The translations under genes were made by a program, and so were the position numbers. Shown piece by piece: positions 33,669 to 50,800 of a stretch of 64,000 nt of DNA. Location of the stretch: positions 5,185 to 69,184 of the IMG/VR virus record IMGVR_UViG_3300049142_000092; one strand, given 5' to 3'. Below the pieces are notes generated by a model that saw nothing but the letters and a program-made list of their open reading frames with translations, searched no databases and was not told where the DNA came from. How positions within the stretch are numbered: the first letter of the stretch is position 1; each line of letters starts with the position of its first letter. Source of the DNA: a virus. Its lineage: Duplodnaviria; Caudoviricetes.

Positions 33669-35525
33669 TCACGGGGTGAACGTGGCGCCGGTGGCGAGGT
33701 TCTGCCACACCGACCCGGTCCACATGACCGGCCCCACGCCACAGGCCAGGCCGGAATCGGTGTTGTAGGCCCGGTCCCCGGTCGTGCGGGAGTTGACCAG
33801 GTCCAGGTCAATCGGGAAGTCCGGGGCGCGGACCGCGATGGTGCCGGCGTCGCGGAAGGTGCGCAGTGCGTTGGTGGTGCCGGTCAGCCCCTGGCCGTGG
33901 CGGATCACCAGGTTGCCGCCGGCGACATACACGATGCCGTTGATGGCGGAGACGTCGATGTCGGACAGGTTGACCTCGCCGGACAGCTGGGTGGCGAACC
34001 CCCAGGCCATGTCGCTGGCCCGGATCCCGCGCAGCACGGCACGCCCCAGGGTCCCGCTCGCAACCTGGGCGTCGAACAGGGCACCGTCCCCGATACCGGT
34101 GCAGGTCCCGTCGGACAGGTAGGCGGCGGTCACCGTCGCCCCGGTGCCCATGCGCACCACGGATGCGCTGGCGGGGAGTGTGACGGTGAAGTCGGAGACC
34201 GACAGGTTGGTTACGGTGCCCAGGACGATCACCATGTGGTCGCCGCTGGCCGGGGAGGCGTGGGTGACGCCTTGAACCAGCAACGACCCGACGGTGACTC
34301 CGGTGACGACCTGACAGAGGAACCCGGCGGTCGAGACGACGTTGCGAACGGTGACCTTTGAGCTGTTGCAGGCGACCTGCACGGCGATGAAGAAGTCGCC
34401 GGTGCCCTTCGCGGTGAGGCCGTCCACGAGCACGTTGTTGATGTGGCCGTCGGTGAGGGAGACACCGGTGTACTCGCCCAGCGAGGTGCCGCGAACGTTG
34501 CGGATGGCGACGTTGTCGATGTCCAGGCCGTTGCGGGTGAAGCACTTCACGATGTTGATCTCGGAGATGACGTCGATGTCCTCGAGCACCGCATCCCGGA
34601 TCTCGCCGGCCACGTCGGTGTACTGGTCGAGGTCGTCGCAGCCCAGCACCACCGAGTCATCCCCGGTGGTGCCGGTGATTCCGCGGATCGTCACCCCGTC
34701 CGCCGGGCCCTGCACGTGCACACCGTCCGAGCTGGTAGCGAACGACACGTCGGAGATCTTCAGCCGGGTCACGTCACCCGGGTTGATCGCGTACTTACCA
34801 GCCGAGGACACGACCCGCAGGTCGCGGACCGTCAGCCCGTCCACCCGCCGGAACCGCAGCATGTGCCGGCCGGGGTTGTCGAGCCCGCCCGCGTTGCTGC
34901 CCGCGTCCCAGGTGCCGCCGATGACCAGGATGTTCTCGTCCCGGTCGTAGACCGGGACGCTCGCGCCGCTCACCGTAGTGGCCGCGGCCGTGTCCAGGGT
35001 GGCGGTGGTGCCGGCCACCGACACGATCTTCGCGCAGAGTGGGGTCGTGGCCAGGCCGCTGGCTGCCACGCCCGCTCCCGGGACGGCGACGCTGCGGCCG
35101 ATGTCGTCGGTGGTCCAGGCCGCCGACGCCGAGGTGAGCGCGGTGGTGCCGGAGGTGATCGCGGCACCGGTGACCGTGCGCTGCACGGTCGCGACGGCGA
35201 AGTTCTGCAGCAGGTTCGCCTGGTCCACGCCCGCGTCCAGGACCACCTTGCAGCCGGTCATGTCGAGCACGGTGTTGGAGCCGATGATGAGCGGTCCACT
35301 GATCAGGTAGGTGCTGCCCGCTCGGCCGCGGATCAGGCCACCGGAGTTGCGCACCGCCGCGAGTTCGCCGTTGATCGCAGCGGTGTCGTCGGTGGCGCCG
35401 TCTCCGGCCGTGCCGGCGATCCCGCCTAGCGCCTCGACGACACCGCCCTCGATGTTGTTCAGTCGGGCGGCCGTGATCTCGGTGATCCCGAACCCGTCGA
35501 CCCAGGTGTACGGGGTGTACGGCAC
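33669..35525 (-). CDS. tailspike / pectin-lyase-like beta-helix protein
   Basis: N-terminal YTPYTWVDG...ITAARLNNIEGG anchor; AGDGATDDTAAI...G.TYLI pectate_lyase_3-like start; DGVHV...NITG..GDD rungs. Confidence 0.85.
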   Translation of the reverse strand: MPYTPYTWVDGFGITEITAARLNNIEGGVVEALGGIAGTAGDGATDDTAAINGELAAVRNSGGLIRGRAGSTYLISGPLIIGSNTVLDMTGCKVVLDAGVDQANLLQNFAVATVQRTVTGAAITSGTTALTSASAAWTTDDIGRSVAVPGAGVAASGLATTPLCAKIVSVAGTTATLDTAAATTVSGASVPVYDRDENILVIGGTWDAGSNAGGLDNPGRHMLRFRRVDGLTVRDLRVVSSAGKYAINPGDVTRLKISDVSFATSSDGVHVQGPADGVTIRGITGTTGDDSVVLGCDDLDQYTDVAGEIRDAVLEDIDVISEINIVKCFTRNGLDIDNVAIRNVRGTSLGEYTGVSLTDGHINNVLVDGLTAKGTGDFFIAVQVACNSSKVTVRNVVSTAGFLCQVVTGVTVGSLLVQGVTHASPASGDHMVIVLGTVTNLSVSDFTVTLPASASVVRMGTGATVTAAYLSDGTCTGIGDGALFDAQVASGTLGRAVLRGIRASDMAWGFATQLSGEVNLSDIDVSAINGIVYVAGGNLVIRHGQGLTGTTNALRTFRDAGTIAVRAPDFPIDLDLVNSRTTGDRAYNTDSGLACGVGPVMWTGSVWQNLATGATFTP

Positions 35526-35528
35526 GGG

Positions 35529-35678
35529 TCAGCCCTCCTGCTTCGATTCGTCACGCTGGGCCAGCAATGCCTCGACCACGGCCTCGTTGGCGGCGGCCCG
35601 CCACAGCGCTTCGCCGAGCGGCTCCCGGCAGAGGATCTGGACGACCCGCTCGGGCGGGACGGAGGGCAGGTCAGGCAT
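35529..35678 (-). CDS. 49-aa hypothetical tail-region protein (not in ORF track)
   Basis: Hand translation MPDLPSVPPERVVQILCREPLGEALWRAAANEAVVEALLAQRDESKQEG. Confidence 0.55.
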   Translation of the reverse strand: MPDLPSVPPERVVQILCREPLGEALWRAAANEAVVEALLAQRDESKQEG

Positions 35679-38600
35679 GGGGCCCCTTCTTCGGTGGGTC
35701 AGTCCAGCGCTTGGGGTCCTGCACGCCCTCGATCACAGGAGGTGGCTGCTCGCCACGCAGTTCCTGCACCAGGGCATACAGCTCGCGCACGGCATCGAGC
35801 GCCAAGGCCACGCGAGCATCCAGCGACACCGTGGGCTGGCCGTTGCGATTGGTACTCACCAGCTCGGGGGCCACGGCCGCGAGGTGCTCGGCGATCACGC
35901 CGTAGTGCCGCTGCGGCGGCTCTCTGCGGGCGACGTCCACGCGGACCTTCTCCATGCGCATCGAGCCGTCCGGCTGACGACGACGAAGCGGCACGGTGCG
36001 CGGTTCGATCGGGTCGAGGTCCCAGTCATAGAGGTAGCTGTAGTTGCGCACCCGAGCAACGACGTCCAGACTGCTCAACCCGCCGCCGAAGCTCAGCGGC
36101 TCGATCTCGCGCTTGGCCATCTCGGTGGACGCCTCCGGATTGAAACTCGCGGCGTAGACCGGGACGGTGGCGTTGCCGTTGCCGCGCGTGAACGTGATCC
36201 GGTTGTTCGACCAAGTGATGCCGGAGCCCTCCGGCGAGAAGCCGGGCGCCAGAATCGCCGGGTCGCCACCCCTGAAGCTGTTGCGCTGGTAGTGCAGGAC
36301 CGTGTCGTTTAGGTCCCCGGCGGCGTTCGCGATAACGAAGTGGAACCGGCTCGCAGTGCCGTCGTCCGGGGCCAGGTGCGACCAGATCCGGATACCGGTC
36401 ACCGGGGCGTTGAGCACCGCGTAGGTCAGGCCCACGTCCAGCTGCGAGCGGACCTGCGTGCTCGTCCCGTACCGGGCTCGCAGGCCGGTCGGATCGAAGT
36501 CGATCCGAGACCGGCGGCCGTTGGCGTCCGGCCGACTGATCGCCCGCCAGATACCGCCCTCGTTGGCCAGCTCGCCGTAGTCGACCCCGGTCGCCCCGTA
36601 GATCCGCATCGTCCCGTTGGACAGCAGCTCGAGGCGCTCGCCCTCCAGGTCGGTGAGGAAGTTCCCGGTCACGAGCATGGACGCGTCCGAGACCTGCCAA
36701 CGGCCAACCACGGTGTTGTTGCGGTAGAGCCGGATGCCCGCGTTGTCGAACTCGATCTTGTTGCCGTTGACCGTCGGCGTGGAGAACCGGCCACCCAGGA
36801 CGACCTGGGCATTCATCGTGCCGGCCGTGATCTTGCCGACGTTCACGTTGTCAATGTGCGCGTCGTTGACCGCGAGCTGGTCGATCTCCGCCGAGCCGAT
36901 GGCGGCCTGCCGGATCGTCTGCCGGTCGATCGTGCCCGGCCCGTACTCGATCGTGACCAACTTCTTCGGCAGCACACCGTCGGAGGTCTCGCTCGGGCCG
37001 GACGCGTTGCCCACCCGGTCGACGGCGACCAGGCGCGCGAAGTACGTGGTGCCGATCGTCAGGTCGGTCAGGTTCGTCGTGCCGGCGGCCATGAAGTTGG
37101 TCTTGTACGTGGTCGATAGCGACAGGTCGACCTTGCCATCCGGACCCACCGGCCGGTCCGGGATGAAGTCGATGCCCTCCGCGAGGTGCACCTCGACCAT
37201 GCCGCCGGACGCGAAGTCCGGCGCGGCGGCCAGCATGTCCTCGCCCGAGGCGCCCTTGCCGTCCCAGGTGACGTTGATCGTACGCAGGTAGGTCGAGACC
37301 GTCGGCCGGGACGGGATCGGCGGGGGCTGGTCGTCCGAGGCGGTGTCCACGGCCACGGTCACCGACCACGGTCCGACGTTGCCGGCCCGGTCGATCGCGC
37401 GCACCCGGACACCCAGGCTCCGGCCGCCCTCGATGTTGCCGAAGGTGAGTGAGGTCGAACGGGTGGGCGATCCCTCCGGCTCGACCCAGGTGGTGTCTTC
37501 GAGCAGACCCTGATCGATCTCCCACTGCTGGGACTCGGTCAGCGGCTGCTGGCCCAGGTAGGAGTAGTTGACCTGGTAGTGGTCGACATCGCCGGTGATC
37601 GGCCCGCTGCCCTGATGCGCGGCCGGGTAGTCACGCAGCCACGCCTCCGCGATGGCCGAGCGTTGCTCGGGGAAGTCCGGCAGGTTCTGGTCGGGGTGGG
37701 ACTGCTTGAACTCCGCCAGGAGAGCGTCGCCGTACGTGGTGACGATCAGCGGGCAGTTGTCCCAGGTCCAGGCGGGATCCCCTTCGTCGTTGACGTGCAT
37801 CGGCTGGCCCGACCGCAGCCGGTCGGCGACCAGGAGAGCGGCCTCCGCGCGGCCGGCCGCGGCCTCGTCCGGGTAGGCATCGGTGAGCACTGCCGCCCAG
37901 CCGGCCGACACCAGGGCCAGCGCAGGGATCTGATCCGGCACCCGGTAGGCGATCGTCGAGGCCAGCGTGAGTCCGGTCGGCGCGGCGGGCGGGATCCGGT
38001 CCTCGCCCGTCCCACCGGGTGTTGGAGTGGACGTGCCGACGACCGCGTCCCCGACCGAGATGGCGTTCAGACGCCGGTACAGCTCGACCACTCGGTTGGC
38101 GATCAGGTCGTTGAGCACGACCGTGCCGCGAGGCGGCTCGTTCTGCGTGAAGGTCAGGTTGATCTGCGCGATCCGCAGGCGCCTGCGCTTGTTGTTGACC
38201 CAGGTGTAGGCCCAGTCCCCGATGCCCCATCCCACGATCGGCAGCGGAACGCCGGTCGAGAACTCGACGTCGCCCACGAACTCGGCCACGCCGTTGCGGA
38301 CAGCCTCCAGCAAGGTCGCGGCGTAGGCCTGCACAGCGTCCTGCGTGGACAGTTGCCCTGCGTCGTCGGCGACCTCGGCTCGCCACCCCAGCTCGGCCTC
38401 GGCCGTGGCCGACTCCGCCCAGGCGTAGAAGCCTTCCGAGGCGGCCGCGAGCACAGCAGTGCCGGCGTCTTCGGCCGATTCCCGTCGGGCGTGCTTGGAC
38501 AGGTTGACCGCGTGCGCGAAGGTCAGCGGCACCAGGCCGGTCGTCCGGTCGGTGCCCATCGCCCCGGACGCGTACGCCCGCCACACCCGGCCGGCAGTCA

Positions 38601-40818
38601 GCTCGTACTCGAGCAACCCGAGCTCAACGAGCTTGTCGGCCACCTGCAGCAGGGACGTCTTCGGGGCGATGTTGAACGACGAGATGGTCTTCGCCCACGG
38701 GTTGCCGTTGCTGTCGTGCGTGGCCGTGAAGTCCCGAGTGACCAGCGGTAGGGCCCGCCGCGCCTGCGCCTGGTCCATGGCCACGGTCAGAATCAGGCCC
38801 GCGGTCGCGCCCACGAACCTCAGTTCGCCCTTCTCATTCTCCTCGGTGCGCTCCTGCGGGGCGACGATCGCCTTCTTCAGGAGCCACTCATGGAAGTGCC
38901 CGTCGAAGGTCCACGTGCCGCCCGGGATGAGGTCGTCGCCCGCCTTCTGGGTCAACCAGCCGCCGAGCGCGCCTTCCTGGGAGCCGCCGAGCCAGATCCG
39001 AACTTCGAGCGCGCGCAGCGGGTAGGCCGAGACGTTGTCGAACAGGGCCGAGAAGCCCGGCGCGCCGGCGGGGTAGTCGATGCTGATCGACCCGGGTGCG
39101 TTGCGCACCGGGGAGATGTCGAGCTTCGTCCACGCCGGCAGCGGGATGAGCTTTCCGGTCCGGTCCACCGCGTACACCGACGGAACGAGTACGCCACCCG
39201 GGGCGGTCGGCGGTGGCGTACCGGCCTTCACTAGCGGCGTCCCGAACGCGGCCGTCGAGGCGATGCCCACGGCGCGCACGTCCTGGGGCCCGTCGGCCAC
39301 CGAGAACAGCGGCAGGCCGAACGCCTGCTTGGACGTGATCTTGCCTGCCGCGCTGACGGTCTGCGATCCAGCGGGCGGGGGTCCGGTCCCGTCGCCCAGG
39401 GTGTATCCGAGCGTGAACGGCAGCACCGTGTCGGTCCCGAGCAAGGTGGCGTGCGAGCCGGGCGGCGGTGGGGACTCCGCGCCGGTGATTGTCGGCACGC
39501 CGAACTGCTGCCCGGACGGGATCCCGGACGTCGTCACGGTCTGCGTGCCCGGCGGCGGGGTGACCGGGGTCAGGGTGTAGACCCGGTACCACTCGACCTC
39601 CATCGTGGCCGGGGTCTGATTCGTGCCGTCGAAGTTGTCCAGCTGGATCGTGCCGAAGCCCTTCGGCATGTCCTGGATGTTGCGACGGCTCGAGCTCGAC
39701 CCGCCCGAGGTGGAGAACCACTCGACGCCGTCGATGAAGCCCTTGATGTGGTCCGGGGTCCACTCGATCGCGATGTTGTGGAACTGGCTCAGGTCCACGC
39801 CGGACTTGTTGAACTCGCGCTGTTGGGAGCCGTCGCCCGGGAAGTGCATGAACGCGGTCAGCGTCGTTCCACCCGGCCGACCGGGCTCGTAATAGTCGTA
39901 CTCGCCGTCTGCGGACATCGAGTTGCTGGTCGGCCAGATCAGCAGCACCGGCGAGTACTCGTTGCCGTTGGAGGTGCCGGTGTTGTACGCGCGCACGCGC
40001 ACTTCCCAGCGGCCGTACTGCTGGTTGAGCTTGTTGGCCATCCAGCCGGAGTCGCCGTTGGCCAGCCCGGTCATGATCAGGCGGCCGTCCTGCACGGTCT
40101 GGCGCTCGGGTCGCCTGCGCCCGTTCCCGGCGTGCCCGGCCCAGTCCGTGCCCGGCAACGACCACTTAGCGGGGTTCGGCGGGCCGGGCTCGTCGAACTC
40201 GTCGCTGTAGGCGGCGATCGGCAGGCCCCAGCCGTTCCGGCCCGCGGCCGTAGTCATGTCCGTGGGCGGCGGGTCGGTGGGGCCTCCGCCGCCCGGGGTG
40301 CTGCCGACCAACGCGCCGGTGCCGTCGGAGTCGTTCGGGTCGCCGTTGATACCGACGTCGCCGGCCTGCAGGAACGTCAGGCGCGGCCCGAGCCCGGTCT
40401 TGCGCCAGATCCCGGCCGAGTCCTGAGTGAACGCCCCGGCCGCCGGCGTGGCGAAGTAGGTGTTGTTCGTGATCGTGGTCGAGACCGGTGCGACCAGCTG
40501 GGTGACCGCCTGCCCGGTGGCCGCCCGGATGACCGCGTTCCCATCGATCGTGCAGCCGGACGGGGCCAGCGAGTAGTTGTCGCCGACCCGCACACCCTCG
40601 GGGCAGTCCACGATGACGTTGTTGCGGACCTGGGCGTTGACCACCCGCCAGTGCCCGGACAGGTTCGTGGACGAGCCCTCGGCGTCACCGGTGTCCAGGA
40701 GCATCGGCCCCTGGAACGAGCCACCGTAGATGCCGGCCACGTAGTTGAACGAGACCTCGTGGTCGCGGTCATAGAACCGGAACCCGCCGGAGCCGATGGT
40801 GGTGCCGAACGTGGCCAC
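35671..40818 (-). CDS. multidomain minor tail (hub/Tal-type) protein: PL6 C-terminal half + GH16 + hub + Fn3 + fibre + S74 chaperone
   Basis: aa ~3-165 GGFRFYDRDHEVSFNY; GH16 with EYDYYE (ExDxxE); siphovirus hub-like region; Fn3-like PPAAPTGL / PPIPSRPTV; C-terminal S74-like S...KREIEPL...HYGVIAE...PELV. Confidence 0.9.
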   Translation of the reverse strand: MATFGTTIGSGGFRFYDRDHEVSFNYVAGIYGGSFQGPMLLDTGDAEGSSTNLSGHWRVVNAQVRNNVIVDCPEGVRVGDNYSLAPSGCTIDGNAVIRAATGQAVTQLVAPVSTTITNNTYFATPAAGAFTQDSAGIWRKTGLGPRLTFLQAGDVGINGDPNDSDGTGALVGSTPGGGGPTDPPPTDMTTAAGRNGWGLPIAAYSDEFDEPGPPNPAKWSLPGTDWAGHAGNGRRRPERQTVQDGRLIMTGLANGDSGWMANKLNQQYGRWEVRVRAYNTGTSNGNEYSPVLLIWPTSNSMSADGEYDYYEPGRPGGTTLTAFMHFPGDGSQQREFNKSGVDLSQFHNIAIEWTPDHIKGFIDGVEWFSTSGGSSSSRRNIQDMPKGFGTIQLDNFDGTNQTPATMEVEWYRVYTLTPVTPPPGTQTVTTSGIPSGQQFGVPTITGAESPPPPGSHATLLGTDTVLPFTLGYTLGDGTGPPPAGSQTVSAAGKITSKQAFGLPLFSVADGPQDVRAVGIASTAAFGTPLVKAGTPPPTAPGGVLVPSVYAVDRTGKLIPLPAWTKLDISPVRNAPGSISIDYPAGAPGFSALFDNVSAYPLRALEVRIWLGGSQEGALGGWLTQKAGDDLIPGGTWTFDGHFHEWLLKKAIVAPQERTEENEKGELRFVGATAGLILTVAMDQAQARRALPLVTRDFTATHDSNGNPWAKTISSFNIAPKTSLLQVADKLVELGLLEYELTAGRVWRAYASGAMGTDRTTGLVPLTFAHAVNLSKHARRESAEDAGTAVLAAASEGFYAWAESATAEAELGWRAEVADDAGQLSTQDAVQAYAATLLEAVRNGVAEFVGDVEFSTGVPLPIVGWGIGDWAYTWVNNKRRRLRIAQINLTFTQNEPPRGTVVLNDLIANRVVELYRRLNAISVGDAVVGTSTPTPGGTGEDRIPPAAPTGLTLASTIAYRVPDQIPALALVSAGWAAVLTDAYPDEAAAGRAEAALLVADRLRSGQPMHVNDEGDPAWTWDNCPLIVTTYGDALLAEFKQSHPDQNLPDFPEQRSAIAEAWLRDYPAAHQGSGPITGDVDHYQVNYSYLGQQPLTESQQWEIDQGLLEDTTWVEPEGSPTRSTSLTFGNIEGGRSLGVRVRAIDRAGNVGPWSVTVAVDTASDDQPPPIPSRPTVSTYLRTINVTWDGKGASGEDMLAAAPDFASGGMVEVHLAEGIDFIPDRPVGPDGKVDLSLSTTYKTNFMAAGTTNLTDLTIGTTYFARLVAVDRVGNASGPSETSDGVLPKKLVTIEYGPGTIDRQTIRQAAIGSAEIDQLAVNDAHIDNVNVGKITAGTMNAQVVLGGRFSTPTVNGNKIEFDNAGIRLYRNNTVVGRWQVSDASMLVTGNFLTDLEGERLELLSNGTMRIYGATGVDYGELANEGGIWRAISRPDANGRRSRIDFDPTGLRARYGTSTQVRSQLDVGLTYAVLNAPVTGIRIWSHLAPDDGTASRFHFVIANAAGDLNDTVLHYQRNSFRGGDPAILAPGFSPEGSGITWSNNRITFTRGNGNATVPVYAASFNPEASTEMAKREIEPLSFGGGLSSLDVVARVRNYSYLYDWDLDPIEPRTVPLRRRQPDGSMRMEKVRVDVARREPPQRHYGVIAEHLAAVAPELVSTNRNGQPTVSLDARVALALDAVRELYALVQELRGEQPPPVIEGVQDPKRWTDPPKKGPHA

Positions 40819-40842
40819 GTGGCTCCTACTCTGTGGGGATGG
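40807..40842. repeat. 36-bp direct repeat, copy 1
   Basis: gaacgtggccacgtggctcctactctgtggggatgg; 35/36 identical to 42794-42829. Confidence 0.95.
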
Positions 40843-41207
40843 ACGACAGGGACGTGACCGGATTCCGGCGGGTGCTGCACGAGTGGGCGCGACGGCAGCT
40901 CGAAGAGCAGTCCGACCACGTGGGGCCGTTCGAGATCGTCCACGTCGAGCTTGACCACGACCTCGGGTCCTCGATGAGCAGCGAAGAGACTTCAGTGGCG
41001 ATCAGGTTCCGCCACGAGGGGAACTGCCCGGCCTACCTTCCGTGCTACCTGGAGCTCAGCCGGGTTGGACCCCAGCGGTGCCTAGTCGAGTGGTGGAGCA
41101 TGCCCGACACCAAGCGCACCGTGGAGATGGTGAACGAGCTGCTAGCCATCGCTCAGAGCGACGTCGGACCGGATCCGGACGTGACGCTGATGCCCACATC
41201 GCCGTAA
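40839..41207 (+). CDS. antisense leaderless hypothetical gene inside the tail operon
   Basis: TACTCT -10 box, 6 nt, then ATG; GC3-rich codons; fills the intergenic gap. Confidence 0.65.
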   Translation: MDDRDVTGFRRVLHEWARRQLEEQSDHVGPFEIVHVELDHDLGSSMSSEETSVAIRFRHEGNCPAYLPCYLELSRVGPQRCLVEWWSMPDTKRTVEMVNELLAIAQSDVGPDPDVTLMPTSP

Positions 41208-42805
41208 CCACTGCCCACGGTGTTGTCGGACCAGAACTTGACATTGCTCGCCCCGTCGCCCAGGTCCACGACGTGGTCGGAGCTGCCGGTGAAGCGGTTG
41301 CGCGTGATGTTCACGTTGTTCACGCCGTCGAGCTTGATGCACTGGTTCCAGGAGTCACCGAACTCATTCTCAGCGATCAGCCAGTTGTTCGGGCTGCCGC
41401 TGCCACCGGAGTTGCCGCCCCGGTTCAGGCCCTCGGCCATGATGCACTGATGGATGCTCGCGATCGCGTTGTCGCGGGACGGGTTGGCCGGGCCGGTGGC
41501 CTTGTTGCCGACGATCTCCCAGTTCGCACTCGCCACCGGGTGCGACGAGCTGACCCACGTCTGGATGAAGTCGGTGTGGCTGTCGCCCGGGTCGCTGACG
41601 CCCACGAAGTTGATCGCGGTGTTGTACCGGATCTTGATATTGTTGCCGAACGCCGTGATCGCGTTCAGGTCACCGTCACCGGTCGGCTTCACGCCCTTGA
41701 TGTCGTTGTTCTGGAACGTGATGTTGTTCCCGTCCAGCAGCGCCCCGTACTGACTGTTCGCGTTGATCCGGAAGTTCTGGACCACCACGTAGTTCGCGGT
41801 GACGTTGATCCGCCCGACCGTGTGCCCCTGCCCGTCGTAGATCCGCGGGCTAGACGCCGTCCCGGACGTGGAGATGGTCAGCGCCGAGGTCGAGTCCGAC
41901 GTGGTCAGGATCGCCCCAGACGGCGTGGCCACCCCGCCCACGCCCAGGGTCTGCGACGGGGTCGAGATCGTGACGTCGTCCACGATGTAGTTGTCGGTCA
42001 TGATCCCGTTGGTGCCGTGCCGGTAGACCAGGCCACCGATGGACTTGACCACGGTGTTGCCGGTGATCCGGATCCCGCACGCCTTCGCGGAGACGATCTC
42101 CGGCTCGCAGATGCAGTCCTCGAACCGGTTCCGCTCGATCACCGAGTTGGAGAAGGTCTTGCTCATGGTCGACACGCCGAGCCGGATCGGCTCCTTCTCG
42201 TTGTCCACCTCGGGCTTGATCGAGTGGATGTAGTTGTGATCGATCCGGACGTGCTTGACCACCTGGAACGTGTCAAAGTTGCCGTCCGCCAGGATCGCGT
42301 TGCCGGGGTTGGCCTTGTTCCGGATCTCGCAGTGGTCGACCCGGATGAAGTCGCAGTTGTCGCCCATGTACACGAACGGCGACTTGGACGAGCCCGGGCT
42401 GCCGATCGAGGACGGGCCGAACAGGCAGCGGGTGATCCGGCAGCGCACGGCGTTGCCGCGGAACTGTGTCACGTTCCCCGAGCTCAGCTCGTACGGGAAC
42501 GACAGGCCCTTGATCGTGACGTACGAGCAGTCCTTGACCGTGAACGTCGACCCGCTGGCGAACACCGCCCCACCGGTGTTCCCGGCCTCGATCGAGATCC
42601 CGGACGTGGACGACCCGTTCTTTCCGGTGATCGAGAAGGCGCCCGAGTAGGTGCCGTTCGCGAGCACGATCCGGTGGCCAGCCGTGGCATTGCTCAGCGC
42701 AGTGGTGAGCGCGCTCGAGTTCGACACGTTGACCACGGTCGAGCCCATCGGAATGACCGGGTACGCCTGGCCGTCGGGGAAGCCCGAGTACGGGAACGTG
42801 GCCAC
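41153..42805 (-). CDS. PL6 (chondroitinase B/alginate lyase-like) N-terminal half + second beta-helix domain
   Basis: RIVLANGTY, RIDHNY, EKEPIRLG, EPEIVSAKA (Lys), YRHG (Arg); the PL6 pattern stops at TDNYIVD, followed by a different right-handed beta-helix. Confidence 0.85.
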   Translation of the reverse strand: MATFPYSGFPDGQAYPVIPMGSTVVNVSNSSALTTALSNATAGHRIVLANGTYSGAFSITGKNGSSTSGISIEAGNTGGAVFASGSTFTVKDCSYVTIKGLSFPYELSSGNVTQFRGNAVRCRITRCLFGPSSIGSPGSSKSPFVYMGDNCDFIRVDHCEIRNKANPGNAILADGNFDTFQVVKHVRIDHNYIHSIKPEVDNEKEPIRLGVSTMSKTFSNSVIERNRFEDCICEPEIVSAKACGIRITGNTVVKSIGGLVYRHGTNGIMTDNYIVDDVTISTPSQTLGVGGVATPSGAILTTSDSTSALTISTSGTASSPRIYDGQGHTVGRINVTANYVVVQNFRINANSQYGALLDGNNITFQNNDIKGVKPTGDGDLNAITAFGNNIKIRYNTAINFVGVSDPGDSHTDFIQTWVSSSHPVASANWEIVGNKATGPANPSRDNAIASIHQCIMAEGLNRGGNSGGSGSPNNWLIAENEFGDSWNQCIKLDGVNNVNITRNRFTGSSDHVVDLGDGASNVKFWSDNTVGSGYGDVGISVTSGSGPTSL

Positions 42806-42829
42806 GCGGCTCCTACTCTGTGGGGATGG
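42794..42829. repeat. 36-bp direct repeat, copy 2
   Basis: gaacgtggccacgcggctcctactctgtggggatgg. Confidence 0.95.
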
Positions 42830-43095
42830 CTGCGGAACCTCTGACGTGCTTCCTTGCCCCTAGTGGACGGTGGAAGCTCGGCGCGGCGTGCCAGTGTGGA
42901 ATCACGCTCCGGGACTGCTGGGTGGGCGAGTCCCGGAGAGGGCGCCAGTGCTGTTGGCGGTGCGAAAAGGACGAGCGCACGGCGCATGCCATCCGCGACG
43001 GCGGGGACAGTGAGGTCATCGCGTCGCTTACTGACGACGACCGGGCGCTCCTACGGGCTCATGGCTGGATCGACCCAATCCAGCTACTGACCTAG
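42826..43095 (+). CDS. antisense leaderless Cys-rich hypothetical gene
   Basis: TACTCT-6 nt-ATG; CQC...C...CCWRC; stop abuts the stop of the PL7 gene. Confidence 0.55.
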   Translation: MAAEPLTCFLAPSGRWKLGAACQCGITLRDCWVGESRRGRQCCWRCEKDERTAHAIRDGGDSEVIASLTDDDRALLRAHGWIDPIQLLT

Positions 43096-44402
43096 CTGTG
43101 CGAGCAGAACAGGTCGCGCAGCTCGGACCGGCCGTACTCCGAGGACGGGTTGTTCTGGTCGGTCGAGTTTTGCTGCACGTACTCGCCGACCTTGAAGTAC
43201 TGGCCCGAGCCCCAGTCCGGATCACCGGTGTACTTCGTGGTGCCATTGATCTTCACGGTCAGCGTGCCGTTGTTGACGTCGATGTCCCAGGCGACCTCCT
43301 GCCCCAGAGCCACGCCGGAGATCAGATCGGCGACTTCGGACCCATTGATGGACAGCCGCCAGGTCTGCGAGCCGGTCGGCGACGAAGCCTCCGCCCGGAT
43401 CTGCAAGGTGTCGTCTGAGGCGTCGTGCATCTGCGCGACCACGACCTCGCACTTCTCCGGGGCGTAGTGCATGACCTTGGTCTTGCCGCGCAAGATGTGC
43501 CGGCCAGAGCTGCCGGACCAGGACGCCTTCGTGGACGTCGACCCGGTGGCCATCTCGCGGAACTCACACCGGGGGTACTTGGTGTTCGTGCTGGTCCGGC
43601 CGCCGTTCATGAACACCTGCATCTGCACGGCTGTGCCGGCAGAGTTCATGACGTAGTACGGGTTGTTGACGTAGCCGTTCTGCAGCTGCGTCGGGGTGAT
43701 GTCCGTGTGGCCGGACTCGAACCCGATCCCCAGGTTCCACCAGCCGCCGGTCGCGTTCCCGAGCCCGTTGATGTTCAGGAACGTGGACGGGTCGCTCGAG
43801 GCCCCGCCGCCGCCCCCGCCGAACGGCAGGACTGCGGTCACGTGGTTGGATGCGGCCGACTCGACGCCGCTGACCAGCGCAGTGACCCAGTATTCATAGT
43901 TCCGGGCGGTGTTCGGGGTCCGGGTGGTCGTGGTCGTGGTCAGGGCAGTCGCGCCGGACACGCCGGACGGGGACTCGGTCTCGTACAGCTTGTACGAGGT
44001 CGCGCCCGCGACCGCGTCCCAGGACAGGTTGATCGCGCCGATGGTGCCGCCAGCGGTGACGGTGGCCTTCATGTTCTTCGGCGAGGTGCTCGACCCGGCG
44101 GTCTCGACCTCGGTCCCGTCCGCGTAGATCCAGGATGTGCCGGTACCCCAGATGACCTTGCCCTTGACGCCGAGACTGGTATCCAGGTAGGGCAGGCCGA
44201 TGGCCGGGGACGGGCGCTGTGCGGTCGTGCCGGACTGAATCTGGCGCGAAGACCCGCCGCCGGCCAGGATCGCGGTCACCTGGTCGTACAGGTCGTCGAG
44301 GGCCTGGTCGAGCGCCTCGATCCCGGTCTCCCAACGGTTGAGCTGGACCGCGTTGACCTGCTCGCCGTCCACCCAGACCTTCGGGGTGTACAGGTCGGCC
44401 AT
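43092..44402 (-). CDS. tail-associated protein: anchor + Fn3 + PL7 alginate lyase
   Basis: YTPKVWVDG...NAVQLNRWETGI anchor; Fn3 LSWDAVAGATSYKLY...YEYWVTA; PL7 motifs RCEFRE, AQMHD, YFKVGEYVQ. Confidence 0.88.
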   Translation of the reverse strand: MADLYTPKVWVDGEQVNAVQLNRWETGIEALDQALDDLYDQVTAILAGGGSSRQIQSGTTAQRPSPAIGLPYLDTSLGVKGKVIWGTGTSWIYADGTEVETAGSSTSPKNMKATVTAGGTIGAINLSWDAVAGATSYKLYETESPSGVSGATALTTTTTTRTPNTARNYEYWVTALVSGVESAASNHVTAVLPFGGGGGGASSDPSTFLNINGLGNATGGWWNLGIGFESGHTDITPTQLQNGYVNNPYYVMNSAGTAVQMQVFMNGGRTSTNTKYPRCEFREMATGSTSTKASWSGSSGRHILRGKTKVMHYAPEKCEVVVAQMHDASDDTLQIRAEASSPTGSQTWRLSINGSEVADLISGVALGQEVAWDIDVNNGTLTVKINGTTKYTGDPDWGSGQYFKVGEYVQQNSTDQNNPSSEYGRSELRDLFCSHS

Positions 44403-44471: not shown

Positions 44472-45314
44472 TTAGGGGGCTAGCAGGTCAGGTCGGTACT
44501 GCCGCAGCAACTCGACGGCCCACTCGACCTTCTGCTCAACGCGCTGGCCTGCGGGCTGGGCGGAGCTCCACAGCTCGAGGTTTCCGGACCGGAACTCGAC
44601 GAGCGGACCGTCGGTGGAGTTGTCCGAGCGCTCGCCGTTGACGTGATGGACGGTCTCTGACTGCGCTAGTTGGCGCCCCAGGAGCTGCTCCATGAGGTAC
44701 CGATGCTCTGGAACCCATTGGCCAGACTCGACTTTGATGAGGACGTAGCCGTTATAGCCACGTCGACGCGTACCGACCGGAAGGGCGACTCCTCGCTTGT
44801 CTTCCCGCCCCATCATCGAGCAGCGACGTGAGCAATACCTCGTCTTCGGCTTCTTGTTGATCAGCGGTTCGCCACACTCTGCACAGGTCTTCGCTGGCAC
44901 TTGCTTGTTGCGCAGACGCAGCTCTCGGCCACACGCGTAGCTGCATGTCTTGGCCGAGCCCTTGAAAGGCGTGTCACACACAGGGCACGGCCGCGAAGCA
45001 CGATCCACGACGTACCAGCAGGCGCGAGAGCAGTACCTGCCAGCAGCCCCGTCCTTCACTAGGAATGACATACCGCATGTCTCGCAGGAGGCCTTGCCGA
45101 GGCGACACTCGTCGGAGCAGTAGACGTTCCGGTTGTACTTGGGCTGGAACGTCTGTCCGCATGCTCGACAGGGTTTCGGCTGTGGTCCGACCAGGCCGGT
45201 GGTGCCCCTTCGGTACTGCCGCATGTAGTGAACCTGGCAGTACCCCTTCCGGTCTGCCGGGGTGTCACACTCGCTCACACTGCACGTTGCGCCCATGGCT
45301 GGTGACATTACCAT
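44472..45314 (-). CDS. HNH homing endonuclease with repeated zinc fingers
   Basis: Four C..C...F...(Y)CS..C units; EHRYLMEQLLGR...VHHVNGERSDN...NLELW. Confidence 0.9.
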   Translation of the reverse strand: MVMSPAMGATCSVSECDTPADRKGYCQVHYMRQYRRGTTGLVGPQPKPCRACGQTFQPKYNRNVYCSDECRLGKASCETCGMSFLVKDGAAGRYCSRACWYVVDRASRPCPVCDTPFKGSAKTCSYACGRELRLRNKQVPAKTCAECGEPLINKKPKTRYCSRRCSMMGREDKRGVALPVGTRRRGYNGYVLIKVESGQWVPEHRYLMEQLLGRQLAQSETVHHVNGERSDNSTDGPLVEFRSGNLELWSSAQPAGQRVEQKVEWAVELLRQYRPDLLAP

Positions 45315-47825: not shown

Positions 47826-50800
47826 TTAGAAGGCGCCGAGCTCGGACCGGACTCGGGCGGCCGACGCACGTGCAGTCGGATCCCCCGCATCTCCCCCTGG
47901 GCCGAGAGCGCGTCGCAGGGCGCGAAGTTCCTGCACGATCGCGGCGTTGTCACCGTGATGGTCGACGTCACCGCGCAGGGCGCGCAGGGCACTGACGATG
48001 CGCCCGTCGTCGAGGGAGACGCGGCTCGTCGAGCGCTGCGACACCGCCGAGCGCATCGAGGACAGCATCGCGCTCGAGGTGCCACCGGAGTTCGTCCCAC
48101 GGACATCGGCCATCCGAGGGACCAGATCGAAGCCCATCCGGCTGGCCGTGGTGGTCAGGATGGACTGCGATCGCGCACTCCGGTTTACCGGGATGAAGGC
48201 CTCGTCGCCCTGCATCCGGTCCCCGATGATCCGGGGCTGGCGGGCCGGCACTATCTCCGCCCGGGCCGCGGACATCGACCGCATGCCACCGTTCGCGTAC
48301 GCCGTCGCGTAGGCGCCCTCGGCGCGGGGCGTGGTGTACGCGCCCGCCGCGCGGGGTGGTGCCGCACCGGTGACGACGACGTTGATCGTGTGCGTGCTCG
48401 AGGTGTTCTGCTTGGCCTTGTCCTTCGCTGCCGTCACAGCAGAGTCGTTGCAGTTGATCGTGTGCATCGATGAGGTGGGCTCTTGAGCCCTGCTCTTCGC
48501 GTCGACGACAGCCTTGTCGTCGACGTTCAAGGTGTGCAGGCTCTGCGACGGCTGCTGGGCGGTCGTCTTGGCCGTCTGGACCGGTCCCGCATCGACGTTC
48601 ATGGTGTGGATGCTCGCGGTCGCGGTCTGGGCGGCAGCCTTCGCAGCGGTGACCGGGCCCGCATCGACGTTGATCGTGTGCGTGCTCGAGGTAGGCGCGG
48701 ACACTGCCGTCCTGGCGGCGTCCGCTGCAGCAGTGTTGGGCGTCAGGTTGACCGGCGCCTCGACCGGATTTCCCGCCTCGGTCCTCGCTGCGTCGGACGG
48801 CCCAGTGTTGGGCGTCAAGTTGACCGGTGCATCGACCGGCTGCCCGGCCGCGGTTCTCGCGGCATCCGCGGGGGCGGTAACGGCCTCGAACGTGACCGCA
48901 CCGGTGGTCTGGTCGACCTTGAGCTTGAACCCGGTCAAGTCCGCCTCGCCAGGCGCCGCATTGCCTAGGATCTGCAGAGTGCCCGTGGTGGCGTCGATCG
49001 CGTACTTGGTCTGGCCGATCGTCAGCATTACCGGCTGGTTGTCGGCGTTGAAGGTGACCGTGGCCTGCTGGCCGTTCGCGAACTGAATGACCTGGGTCAG
49101 CGTGTCGTTCACCCGCGTGGGATCGCCGACGAAGGTCACCGTGCCGACGTACTCCTGCGACACCAGATCGTTGACCGTGGCCTTGTACGACTCAATCTTT
49201 CCGGTCTCCGCGTTGGTCACGATCGTGACCGTCCGACCGTCCGGCAGCGTGAGAACCTCGGTCTTCAGCCCGGTCATCTGCGCGGACGCGGAGAGCGCGG
49301 CCAGGCCCGTGTTGTCCAGGTTGGACGCGAGCTTGACGAACGCGTCCCGTCCGGCGGCCGTGCCGTCGTTCAGCTTGAGCAACTCGCGGTTGTAGGTCTC
49401 CAGGCCCACCTTGGCCCGGGTGTTCGCGTCCACCCCCTTCAGCTGCGACTCGGCGGCCTTCTGCGCGGCCTGCGCCTGCTGCTCCTGCGAGCGCGCCAGG
49501 TCCAGAACCTTGGCTTTGTAGTCGTCGCTGTTCGCCCCGGACTTCTTCAGGGCATCGTTGGCGGTCTTGTGTGCCTCGCCGGTCCGCTTGACTGCGTCCT
49601 CGTAAGCGAGCGCAGTACCGATCTGGGTCTGCATCGACGACCCGAGGTCGCGGATGGCGTCCGCGTGGGTCTTGGCCGCGGACGCCGCCGTCTCCTGTTC
49701 GGCGGCGAGTCGGTCGTTGGCCGCGGTCAGGTCGCCAAGGGCTGAGTTGGCCTGCTGGCTGCTTGGACCGAACTGCTCCACGGCAGCTCGCCACACGTTC
49801 GCCGCCATGGCCGCGTCCAGCTGGGCCTGCTGTAGCGGGGTCATCGCCGCGCGGGCCTCGTCAGTGGACGAGGTGAACAGGTCCATGGCGCTGCCGACGG
49901 TGCGCAGTACAGCACCGAGCGGGCCGCCTGCGTTCTTCAGCGAGTCCATCGCGAAGGTCTGTGCCTGCAGACCGGCGGCCGCCTCCTGGGCCGCGGCACC
50001 GCCCGCGTCCATGGCGCGAGCGGCCTCGTCAGTGGACACCGTCAGGGCATCCCAGGCTGAGGCCAGGGCAACGACCGCCACCCCGACGATCGGCACTGCG
50101 GTACCGAGCGCGGAGAACGTCCGAGTGATCCCACTGACGGCACCGGCCGACGCGCCGAGTCTGCCCGCCAGCCCGCCGATCTTCGTGCCCAACCCGGTGA
50201 TCAGGGCATTGATCGGCTGCAGGCCCTTGAACGCCAACGCCATGGCGACCACGGCGCCGGGGATCGGGCCCAGTGCTCCCAGTAGTCCAACCAGGCCCGA
50301 CACGATCGGTCCGATTACGACGGAGACCGCAGAGAGTGCATTGGCCAGGGCGTCCACGACGCCGCCGGCCAACGTGCCCAGCGCGGGCAACAACGGGGCA
50401 ATCGCGGTCGCCATACTGGAGAACGCCTGTCCGGCCGCGACCAGCGCGCCCGTGTTGGCGAAGGCCTCGACCGCCTGCGCGGCGGCCTGTCCCAGTGCGG
50501 CCAGCCCGGGCATGATCGCGTCGATGGTGCGGCGGATCTCGGAGAAGACCGCGATCATCTGCCGCTGGCCCTCGGCGCTTCTGGCCCAGCGCTCCATCCC
50601 GCCGGTGAGCCGGTCCAGGGTGTCGAGCAGGCTCGCGCCGGCCTGGCGTTGAGCCGCGAAGACCGCGAGAAGAGTGCCGCCGACGTTCCCCGCGATCGAG
50701 CCGAGCGTCTTGAGTGTGTCGACGCCGCTCTGGATCCAGACCTTCAGTTCACCCGACCGACGTGCCTCGTCGATGAAGGTGCGGAACCGGCCGGTGGCCG

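Follow-up and report, generated by a model that had tools for sequence, protein, structure and literature searches.

The locus analyzed here raises the question of how a PL6 polysaccharide lyase beta-helix came to be split over two adjacent tail genes of an uncultured high-GC phage, and whether the two pieces still act together. Gene fission normally occurs between domains. Here, the cut falls within a single catalytic beta-helix and leaves active-site residues on both products, and the arrangement has been kept up to a divergence of ~50% identity. The two genes, which we call A and B, lie on the minus strand of the window (the whole 64-kb stretch of DNA analyzed) and contain the following features.

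41153-42805, minus strand: gene A (P0001), 550 aa
41975..42805, minus strand: PL6 N-half, P0001 residues 1-277 (PF14592; PDB matches 7o84, 6qps, and 5gkd; VIA)
42083-42085, minus strand: catalytic K241, in the N-half of P0001
42020-42022, minus strand: catalytic R262, in the N-half of P0001
41936..41974, minus strand: flexible Ser/Thr/Pro-rich linker, P0001 residues 278-290, directly past the break (AF2 pLDDT <50)
41153..41935, minus strand: cargo BH2, P0001 residues 291-550 plus stop, a separate right-handed beta-helix with a weak PF13229 match
35671-40818, minus strand: gene B (P0002), 1715 aa
40315..40818, minus strand: PL6 C-half, P0002 residues 1-168 (phmmer match to 7o84_A; PF14592; AF2 plus VIA)
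40777-40779, minus strand: Arg14 of P0002, equivalent of AlyGC R265 and BcelPL6 R294, subsite +2
39589..40095, minus strand: GH16 glycoside hydrolase domain, P0002 residues 242-410 (PF00722, E value 6.4e-9)
35671..39588, minus strand: rest of P0002, fn3-like and central-tail-fibre-J-like, with a weak C-terminal Peptidase_S74 (Pfam, PHROG)

Residues 27-277 of P0001 match PL6 (PF14592, E value 3.6e-30), the PDB sequence match to 7o84_A covers chain residues 16-262, and the PL6 match stops at Asp276/Asp277, near base 41975-41980. The preliminary description of this DNA had read gene A as a PL6 N-terminal part with the catalytic Lys and Arg, ending at about 41978, and PF14592, 7o84_A, and the AF2 model all agree with that reading. 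When the AF2 model was aligned to single-domain PL6 structures (7o84 and 6qps) with VIA, only model residues 22-278 aligned (Z 27.5, rmsd 2.0 Å), corresponding to the first two thirds of those structures. Lys241 and Arg262 align to K249 and R270 of BcelPL6 and to K220 and R241 of AlyGC, and N202, E205, E234, and E236 align to the PL6 Ca2+ ligands. The catalytic Lys/Arg pair and the Ca2+-binding Asn/Glu/Glu/Glu set that characterize PL6 are thus all on P0001, and His263 is a further catalytic residue in this half.

The chain breaks one rung past the catalytic Arg. The AF2 model of P0001 has a pTM of 0.52 although its mean pLDDT is 88, and pLDDT drops below 50 in the linker at residues 278-290; the N-half and BH2 appear as separate domains with a disordered linker between them and with the last PL6 rung uncapped. 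The N-half folds confidently alone (pLDDT mostly >85 over residues 11-260). P0001 is therefore a truncated PL6 plus a separate domain in the AF2 model, and the idea that it might fold as a complete PL6 by itself failed. Homologues have P/G/S/T-rich linkers of variable length at the same point. The top whole-model fold matches of P0001 were two-domain PL6 lyases (AlyGC 5GKD, BcAlyPL6 7DMK, and Patl3640 7O77), in which, as in P0001, the catalytic beta-helix is followed by a second one. However, the N-terminal domain of those enzymes is complete, whereas that of P0001 is truncated at residue 277 and lacks the last third, which sets it apart from the AlyGC type. No sequence similarity was detectable between BH2 and the C-terminal domain of these enzymes, and the superpositions are non-rigid (rmsd ~16 Å); the whole-model search was dominated by the N-half. 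BH2 had no PDB sequence match. Modules homologous to BH2 (55-85% identity) are found in actinobacterial and metagenomic proteins, either by themselves or combined with discoidin domains or PL7 lyases.

The last third of the fold was found at the start of gene B. Residues 9-143 of P0002 match 7o84_A 266-399 (phmmer, E value 8e-6), the exact continuation of the P0001 match, and the N-terminal AF2 model aligns to AlyGC 258-423 (VIA, Z 12.9). This bears out the earlier expectation that the next tail gene begins with the PL6 continuation, and the contrary case, an N terminus of other origin, is contradicted by both sequence and fold. A duplicated catalytic-Arg rung (a paralogue) was also considered for this N terminus and dropped, because the PDB alignment places the next rung there. 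In BcelPL6, Arg-294 binds at subsite +2 and is 98% conserved (PMC6879350). This conserved PL6 residue is present in the split pair, yet on the other gene product, as Arg14 of P0002. Modeled alone, the C-half had a pLDDT of 34 to 65 over residues 1-60 and high confidence afterwards; the model came from a shallow alignment (14 sequences), and the low N-terminal confidence may be technical. The rest of P0002 matches the tail-protein families phrog_31 and phrog_1330. Its fn3 match had a Pfam score below the cutoff, as did the C-terminal Peptidase_S74 match (PF13884, E value 0.0026, 18.5 bits against a 22-bit cutoff), which recurs faintly in the P0002 homologues of L013 and L016.

The split is real, and the pieces tile the PL6 fold exactly. 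Residues 1-277 of P0001 and residues 9-143 of P0002 together correspond to 7o84 residues 16-399 of 426, P0001 covers PF14592 profile positions 1 to ~254 of 426 and P0002 positions 256-356, and both halves have the right-handed parallel beta-helix fold of PL6. The gene starts are 1987 bp apart and so out of frame by 1, as first reported. Single-domain PL6 lyases acting on alginate or dermatan sulfate (Pedsa0632 7O84, BcelPL6 6QPS, and chondroitinase B 1DBG) share with the split pair the fold, the Ca2+ ligands, the catalytic Lys and Arg, the His, and the +2-subsite Arg. They are single polypeptides, however, whereas in the split pair the active-site residues are on two products and a cargo sits at the break. 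Beta-eliminative cleavage of polyuronates is the activity predicted for the paired halves. Exact tiling is by itself no evidence that the halves function together, since an insertion into a gene gives complementary fragments by construction.

Twelve independent metagenomic loci (assemblies) have the split form, and their halves have diverged to ~50% identity. The split loci listed are the window, L001, L007, L009, L010, L012 to L018, and L019; L011, which came without downstream DNA, was left out. Every look-up from a PL6N-cargo gene with downstream DNA found a gene B with a PL6 C-half (5 out of 5; two further look-ups, without downstream DNA, are outside this count), and, starting from gene B, a PL6N-cargo gene lay upstream in 5 out of 5 look-ups. 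A metagenome scan with the C-half alignment gave five loci, and most loci came from exact-protein look-ups instead. These data show that a clade of uncultured high-GC siphoviruses has inherited and conserved the split. Co-occurrence of the halves is also expected from shared ancestry and synteny.

Relatives with a contiguous domain, which the preliminary description had proposed to look for, were found as well: L003 (P0123), L005, L006, P0130, P0134, and others. In L003, L005, and L006, the two pieces are joined by merely a short loop. The uninterrupted phage relatives belong to the same clade and have the same tail-module synteny as the window, to which their N-half is 57-75% and their C-half 63-74% identical, and their PL6 is continuous, with further enzyme domains (PL7 and GH16) in the same chain. 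They support the earlier proposal that an ancestral fusion was interrupted by an insertion with its own ribosome binding site (RBS); the insertion supplies a stop, an RBS, and a start. In the PL6N tree, uninterrupted L005 and L006 are nested among split forms, which implies at least two state changes. Among ~150 PL6 cluster representatives listed, entries of at least 600 aa have adjoining halves (gap of at most 16 residues), this clade excepted; ~16 shorter entries (81-560 aa), also without an N-half, were left out of this comparison. None of the ~150 was a single-chain form with cargo between the halves and no stop. The cultured-phage database contained nothing that matched the region, P0001, or the C-half at the DNA or protein level, a scan of GTDB species genomes with the N-half found no relative, and literature searches yielded no account of a PL6 or a beta-helix depolymerase that is split.

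Some trends were apparent at the break. First, at least six kinds of cargo follow the N-half (BH2, discoidin plus BH2, discoidin, GH5, phage-tail-tip repeats, and an unassigned domain), and all six begin past the same residue, behind P/G/S/T linkers. L018 has an additional apiosidase-like cargo on the gene-B side. Second, BH2 is 86% identical between the window and L012, whereas the PL6 halves of the same pair are just 52-55% identical. Sequence comparison shows that cargo has been swapped at the break and that the cassette has moved between backbones. Third, there are three break positions across the split loci. For example, the N-piece of L017 is longer by 46 PL6 residues and its C-piece starts almost exactly at its end, with about four loop residues replaced. 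Finally, the spacers between the halves vary widely (3, 11, 15, 17, 33, 59, 150, 334, and ~1470 bp), and some contain antisense genes.

The starts of the two genes and their surroundings contain further features.

42794..42829, minus strand: 36-nt direct repeat, copy 1, RBS region plus first four codons (V-A-T-F) of gene A
40807..40842, minus strand: 36-nt direct repeat, copy 2, RBS region plus first four codons of gene B
40833..41207, plus strand: P0124 (124 aa), antisense gene within the 334-bp spacer that separates the halves
43092..44402, minus strand: PL7 alginate-lyase tail-module gene upstream of gene A (PF08787, E value 3.7e-37)

The repeat, absent from the preliminary description, is 35/36 identical (97%) between copies spaced 1987 bp apart, which flank gene A and the spacer. 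It covers the RBS region and the initial four codons of each gene, so that gene B starts afresh from a duplicate of the gene A start region. A general start-associated motif of the phage was rejected as an explanation, since the 16-nt core (at most three mismatches allowed) matches only these two starts in the 64-kb window. The upstream motif also precedes gene B in L014, L015, and L019, and gene A or the uninterrupted gene in L014, L007, L009, and L005, the last being an uninterrupted form with the motif as in the window. Where spacers are 3 to 17 bp, the repeat is short or absent. A CGTGG microhomology had been noted at both break points. It is present at both places, with the left copy at Val275, ahead of the break, but in this sequence, a pair of 21-bp windows picked at random has some 5-mer in common 34% of the time, and the density of CGTGG or its complement is 5.25 per kb. 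CGTGG therefore carries no evidential weight, and it was rejected as a recombination scar.

The 3′ end of P0124 overlaps that of P0001 by 55 bp, and a homologue (56% identical, E value 4e-37) occupies the same antisense position in L015; neither P0124 nor the other antisense spacer genes had a match in Pfam, PHROG, or Atlas. The PL7 gene is a conserved neighbor of gene A in the related loci in which that flank was read (L009, L012 to L016, and L018). An HNH endonuclease-like gene lies nearby, at 44472-45314.

An insertion that split the gene, followed by reassembly of the halves in trans and docking of cargo on the tail protein, is the best explanation of these observations, and we consider it somewhat more probable than not. 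The ancestor would have had its PL6 beta-helix at the N terminus of one large tail-protein gene. A cassette would then have entered a surface loop between two rungs, one rung past the catalytic Arg, bringing with it a flexible linker, the cargo domain (BH2 in the window), a stop codon, and a duplicate of the RBS region and start codon of the gene itself. Gene A now encodes the PL6 N-half, the linker, and the cargo, and gene B the PL6 C-half, GH16, and the tail fiber. On the virion, the halves may stack noncovalently into one beta-helix, with an active site rebuilt from the Ca2+ ligands, Lys, Arg, and His of gene A and the +2-subsite Arg of gene B. This contact would tether a swappable cargo enzyme to the tail, and the near-identical start regions may help equal production of genes A and B. 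In its most specific form, a plug-and-socket, the C-half would be a socket on the tail protein and the N-half a universal plug with swappable cargo, docking of which rebuilds the shared active site; we give this form an even chance. Modular phage depolymerases and receptor-binding proteins, such as the Klebsiella KP32-type and G7C-type anchor-branch systems, combine a conserved N-terminal anchor with an exchangeable hypervariable C-terminal enzyme and are similar in that an enzymatic module is swapped by recombination and the partner is on a neighboring tail protein. Their anchor is a dedicated small adaptor domain, whereas the anchor pair proposed here consists of two catalytic beta-helix halves.

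Conservation suggests that reassembly of the PL6 halves in trans on the tail is plausible. All seven active-site residues of the N-half were kept in 53 of 56 homologous sequences. In the C-half, uninterrupted forms have 40 invariant columns. The window retains every one of them, and split-form C-halves paired with a live N-half keep 39 to 40, Arg14 included (an outlier, P0131, has 37). Three N-halves (P0030, P0033, and P0034) have lost the active-site residues and are catalytically dead. Both halves are retained in the corresponding loci (L009, L015, and L016), and both are under purifying selection, the dead clade included (dN/dS <1; NG86 values of 0.22-0.29 in the dead clade), although strong GC3 bias depresses dS and makes these values valid only relative to neighboring domains. 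The dead-clade C-halves have three to five changes at otherwise invariant columns, D45E being common to them; the dead clade goes back to one evolutionary event, and its correlated relaxation in both halves therefore counts as n = 1. The extreme N-terminal residues of gene B are conserved, though disordered in the isolated model.

The strongest rival holds that the pieces are independent and do not reassemble, the PL6N-cargo protein being a free enzyme released at lysis or otherwise attached, and the C-half a structural stalk. We regard this as the less likely course of events, though a serious one. Complementarity and synteny follow from the insertion itself, and AF2 gives confident models for each piece alone, for most of the N-half as noted above and for C-half rungs 61-140. 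Other means, such as self-association, could also stabilize a truncated beta-helix that has a free edge. However, this explanation accounts neither for a stalk that keeps the +2-subsite Arg and 39-40 of 40 enzyme-invariant columns nor for a dead N-half held under purifying selection beside its C-half. It also leaves unexplained why the extreme N terminus of gene B, disordered in isolation, is conserved, and why the last rung of the N-half is left uncapped by the flexible linkers past the break.

The remaining alternatives fare worse. A switch, in which recombination regularly either removes the insert and restores an uninterrupted lyase or removes gene A by way of the 36-nt repeat, giving alternative tail configurations within a phage population, would fit the 97% identical repeat flanking gene A and the spacer and the nesting of L005 and L006 among split forms. 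We consider it improbable, because recombination at the 36-nt repeat would remove the whole N-half instead of rejoining the domain, loci with 3- to 17-bp spacers have a short repeat or none, CGTGG is at chance level and not at the break, and no deletion variant occurred among the loci examined. The earlier suggestion that a deletion through CGTGG regenerates a full enzyme found no support, and the sole real repeat would delete all of gene A. Mobile-looking DNA nearby (the antisense spacer gene and the HNH endonuclease-like gene) could suggest a recent accident or assembly artifact in a decaying lyase gene, but the same split in 12 independent assemblies at ~50% identity, with catalytic residues intact and dN/dS <1, refutes this. 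Fusion of both frames by recoding (frameshift, read-through, or bypass) or by protein splicing is refuted for practical purposes. The genes are indeed same-strand neighbors whose frames are offset by one base, but the cargo domain and its stop sit between the halves, a strong RBS precedes each gene-B start, and L001 has an in-frame stop directly before that start. A programmed frameshift or read-through pair would have a conserved overlap or slippery site and fixed spacing, whereas the spacers range from 3 to ~1470 bp and can contain antisense genes. Pfam scans of P0001, P0002, and homologues found no intein/Hint family, and the cargo consists of beta-helix, discoidin, GH5, and similar domains instead of an intein or trans-splicing element.

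Even without reassembly, the locus is a well-documented case of tail genes reshaped by the insertion of a cassette and the shuffling of domains. If the halves reassemble, they would represent a new principle of depolymerase attachment in phages, with a split enzyme acting as adaptor, and would explain how tail enzymes are swapped at one fixed junction. They would also provide an evolved split-beta-helix pair for protein engineering, e.g., for modular enzyme display on phage tails. The plug-and-socket arrangement, if true, would be an undescribed route by which phages attach and exchange their tail enzymes, as well as a natural case of fragment complementation inside one beta-helix domain. The combination of PL7, PL6, GH16, and further glycan-active modules on the tails of this uncultured soil-phage clade points to hosts with a polyuronate-rich envelope.

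The G+C content of the window is 66-71% throughout, and a siphovirus-type tail module occupies the minus strand from ~52 kb down to 33 kb.

Genes of the tail module, in order.
47826-52220, minus strand: tape-measure protein, first in the order
Between the tape-measure and HNH-like genes, minus strand: a 654-aa protein, then a 144-aa protein
44472-45314, minus strand: HNH-endonuclease-like gene, 280 aa (PHROG 1271, E 3e-21)
43092-44402, minus strand: 436-aa protein with a PL7 alginate-lyase domain, directly before P0001
41153-42805, minus strand: gene A, encoding P0001 (550 aa; PL6 N-half, linker, and a second beta-helix, BH2), followed by a 334-bp spacer
35671-40818, minus strand: gene B, encoding P0002 (PL6 C-half, GH16, and the remainder of the tail protein), after the 334-bp spacer
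33669-35525, minus strand: 618-aa protein downstream of P0002, with a weak pectate-lyase-like match (PF12708, E 5e-4)

The region had no match in cultured phages of the INPHARED collection at the DNA or protein level. The HNH-like gene at 44472-45314, which had no significant Pfam match, separates the 144-aa gene from the PL7 gene in the window. In the related loci L009, L012, L014, L016, and L018, these two genes are adjacent, so the HNH-like gene has the appearance of a free-standing homing endonuclease inserted into the tail module. Besides PL6, the glycan-active parts of the module are the upstream PL7, the GH16 within P0002, and the weak PF12708 match downstream; together they point to a polyuronate-rich host surface.

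The preliminary description had proposed that one PL6 domain is divided between two tail genes, and this was confirmed. P0001 matches the PL6 family (PF14592, E 3.6e-30), and its alignment to solved PL6 lyases is confined to residues 22-277 (for example, 7o84_A 16-262 and 6qps_A 41-283). The Lys and Arg previously read as catalytic in type, Lys241 and Arg262, fall in these alignments on the catalytic pairs of BcelPL6 (K249/R270) and AlyGC (K220/R241). His263 coincides with the conserved His, and Asn202, Glu205, Glu234, and Glu236 with the Ca2+ ligands. The first 143 residues of P0002 match 7o84_A 266-399 (E 8e-6) and also AlyGC from residue 259 onward. Since both products match consecutive stretches of 7o84_A, together they tile a single PL6 domain that is broken between residues 262 and 266 of this chain. 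Arg14 of P0002 is the equivalent of AlyGC R265 and of BcelPL6 R294, which is 98% conserved and touches the substrate carboxylate at subsite +2; the arginines equivalent to R294 are important for activity in AlyGC and AlyF (PMC6879350). Jointly, P0001 and P0002 have the sequence and fold that define PL6, without the one complete domain per polypeptide that known PL6 enzymes have.

The AF2 model of P0001, built with 28 homologues, has a mean pLDDT of 88 and a pTM of 0.52, with residues 278-290 below pLDDT 50, which means that P0001 is predicted to be two well-folded domains joined by a flexible linker. When single-domain PL6 structures are superposed on the model, they cover only its residues 22-278 (Z 25-27.5, rmsd ~2 Å). 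Their last ~130 residues are unmatched, and therefore P0001 is not a complete PL6. The likeness of P0001 to two-domain PL6 lyases (AlyGC, for example) is superficial: in P0001 the first domain is truncated, and the second, BH2, has no sequence relationship to the second domain of those enzymes. The AF2 model of P0002 residues 1-179 is a beta-helix stub, and among known structures AlyGC 258-423 matches it best (Z 12.9), in agreement with a PL6-derived N terminus. Neither of the two outcomes that the preliminary description named as refuting a split domain was thus observed. With a shallow alignment behind the model, the stub has a pLDDT of 34-65 over its first 60 residues, the side that would abut the N-half, and of 79-92 over residues 61-140.

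Relatives with a contiguous PL6 domain do exist. In L003 (IMG/VR), a single reading frame, P0123, encodes the N-half and C-half joined by a short loop, followed by PL7 and then GH16, and the domain is also continuous in L005, L006/L008, P0045, P0088, P0130, and P0134. Aligned with these forms, P0001 departs from PL6 sequence 1-2 residues past the conserved Asp276 and P0002 re-enters it two residues ahead of the conserved Thr-Phe-Gly, so that at most ~2 loop residues are missing. The uninterrupted relatives support the earlier suggestion that an ancestral lyase-tail fusion was interrupted; the split arose by insertion into an uninterrupted ancestor. An exhaustive HMMER search yielded ~150 PL6 cluster representatives. 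Outside the clade, all of those of at least 600 aa have the halves adjoining, and in none of the ~150 was a domain seen inserted at the break within one chain; ~16 short representatives (81-560 aa), probably fragments, also lack the N-half.

Three break positions were found. The common one (i) lies after Asp276 and before Thr-Phe-Gly, as in the window; in L012 (ii), the break is in the same loop with the gene B start five residues later; and in L017 (iii), an additional rung of 46 PL6 residues precedes the linker and BH2 in the gene A product (P0039), and gene B begins almost exactly at the end of this extra piece. On the PL6 N-half tree, the split state must have changed two or more times: L012 clusters with P0123 and P0088 (SH-aLRT 94), both uninterrupted, and two more uninterrupted forms, L005 and L006, are nested among split ones. 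Two seemingly uninterrupted metagenomic PL6 proteins, P0044 and P0054, have Arg/Pro/His-rich tails that cannot be aligned with relatives; their 3′ ends look frameshifted or misassembled, and they were excluded from the trees and conservation counts.

The split of one catalytic domain is real and heritable. More than 25 full-length homologues of the 550-aa N-half plus BH2 protein were found in soil metagenomes at 50-81% identity. Both genes are readable in 12 loci (the window, L001, L007, L009, L010, L012 to L018), and in a 13th, L019, gene A runs off the contig yet is recognizable and gene B is complete. In every locus, the gene after the PL6N-cargo gene opens with the PL6 C-half, except in L018, where gene B (P0127, 5001-11714) has an apiosidase-like PF13204 domain, Collagen_bind_2, and a Pro/Gly linker ahead of the C-half; therefore, the C-half side of the break can also bear cargo. 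Starting from gene A, the C-half was found downstream in 5/5 look-ups with downstream DNA (the P0041 look-up gave no DNA, and the P0049 contig ends after the gene), and starting from gene B, the PL6N-cargo gene was found upstream in 5/5. The spacer between the genes is 3 bp in L017, 11-59 bp, 150 bp in L019, 334 bp in the window, and ~1.47 kb in L013. No description of such a PL6 split was found in the literature searched.

The N-half stops at one same residue in proteins with very different C-terminal parts. After a Pro/Gly/Ser/Thr-rich linker, present before every cargo, come BH2, discoidin plus BH2 (P0028-P0034), discoidin alone (P0049), a GH5 cellulase-type domain (P0038 and P0041), phage-tail-tip repeats (P0050), or an unassigned domain (P0053). 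BH2 is a ~265-aa beta-helix module (41153-41935, minus strand, in the window; P0046-P0121) with invariant Asp/His/Gln/Asn positions, without its own Pfam family or a solved relative by sequence. It occurs alone, following discoidin domains, or fused to PL7 alginate lyases, and BH2 after discoidin domains is widespread in Actinomycetota (Streptomyces, Micromonospora, and Amycolatopsis). Recombination has exchanged the cargo at the break. Between the window and L012, BH2 is 86% identical, whereas the PL6 halves are just 52-55% identical, and therefore the cassette moved between diverged backbones.

The CGTGG microhomology reported earlier is present at both sites but is not informative, since random 21-bp window pairs of this sequence share some 5-mer in 34% of cases and the left copy lies at Val275, ahead of the break. 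The start region, however, has been duplicated. A 36-nt direct repeat (35/36 identical; 42794-42829 and 40807-40842) comprises the GTG start, the three codons after it, and the 24 nt before it, which contain the AGGAG ribosome-binding site; its 16-nt core, allowing up to 3 mismatches, matches at only these two places in the window. In L014, L007, L009, and L005, the same upstream motif stands before gene A or the uninterrupted gene, and in L014, L015, and L019 it stands before gene B. Gene B starts with Val-Ala in all three break types; in type (i), the Thr-Phe that follows is native to both the PL6 N terminus and the break loop. The inserted DNA probably ended on the right with a duplicate of the start region of the PL6 gene, joined at the Thr-Phe microhomology.

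The window spacer contains an antisense gene (40833-41207, plus strand) for the 124-aa P0124, with no Pfam, PHROG, or Atlas match. A 56% identical homologue lies in the same antisense position in L015 (7159-7536, minus strand); the final ~17 residues, overlapping the P0001 end, are not conserved. The spacers before gene A and gene B, both with the start-region motif, repeatedly contain unrelated antisense genes of 53-448 aa (L013, 2446-3950; L014, 3766-4023 and 1881-2054; L015, 7159-7886; L018, 2737-3162; L011, 1155-1703), and these spacers look like moron landing sites. The genes of L018 and L011 are 45% identical to each other, and there are about five Cys-rich repeats in the 448-aa protein of L013.

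Both pieces are under purifying selection. Seven N-half active-site residues are retained in 53/56 N-halves, split and unsplit alike. In the C-half, 40 columns are invariant across 12 uninterrupted forms, and of the 10 split forms whose N-half is intact, nine differ at no more than one of these columns (the window at none); the outlier, P0131, differs at 3. The three N-half exceptions, P0030, P0033, and P0034, form one clade with discoidin plus BH2 cargo, in which the Asn, one Glu, the Arg, and the His are gone, and in P0034 the Lys as well. In their loci (L016, L015, and L009, respectively), gene B still opens with the C-half, with 3-5 changes at the 40 columns (Asp45Glu in all; Arg14Lys in L009). 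Since absolute dN/dS values are unreliable under GC3 bias, only the comparison between segments is meaningful: NG86 dN/dS in this clade is 0.22-0.29 for both halves, not above the cargo or the gene B remainder, and in other pairs that of the C-half is 0.25-0.55, like neighboring segments or lower. Having lost these residues, the clade serves as a naturally occurring, catalytically inactive control for the docking hypothesis.

That the halves are kept after catalysis was lost points to a structural or docking role, and we lean slightly toward the N-half and C-half stacking back together in trans. Consistent with this, both chains retain catalytic residues, the gene B N-terminal residues are conserved though predicted to be disordered in isolation, the flexible linkers leave the last N-half rung uncapped, and cargo can hang off either side of the break. 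The two pieces might instead function independently, which we consider less probable; complementarity and co-occurrence already follow from insertion and synteny, and the dead clade is a single event. A switch by recombination, recoding that joins both frames, and decay of the disrupted gene, the last to be set beside the purifying selection on both pieces, are minor alternatives. Assembly in trans is plausible and testable.

The split pair falls among the modular phage tail depolymerases of family PL6. Phage depolymerases combine an anchor with an exchangeable enzyme, and this layout would be the closest functional analogy, the proposed anchor here being half an enzyme. A further argument for reassembly is that the ancestral PL6 was covalently attached to the tail protein; reassembly would hold PL6 and its cargo on the virion.
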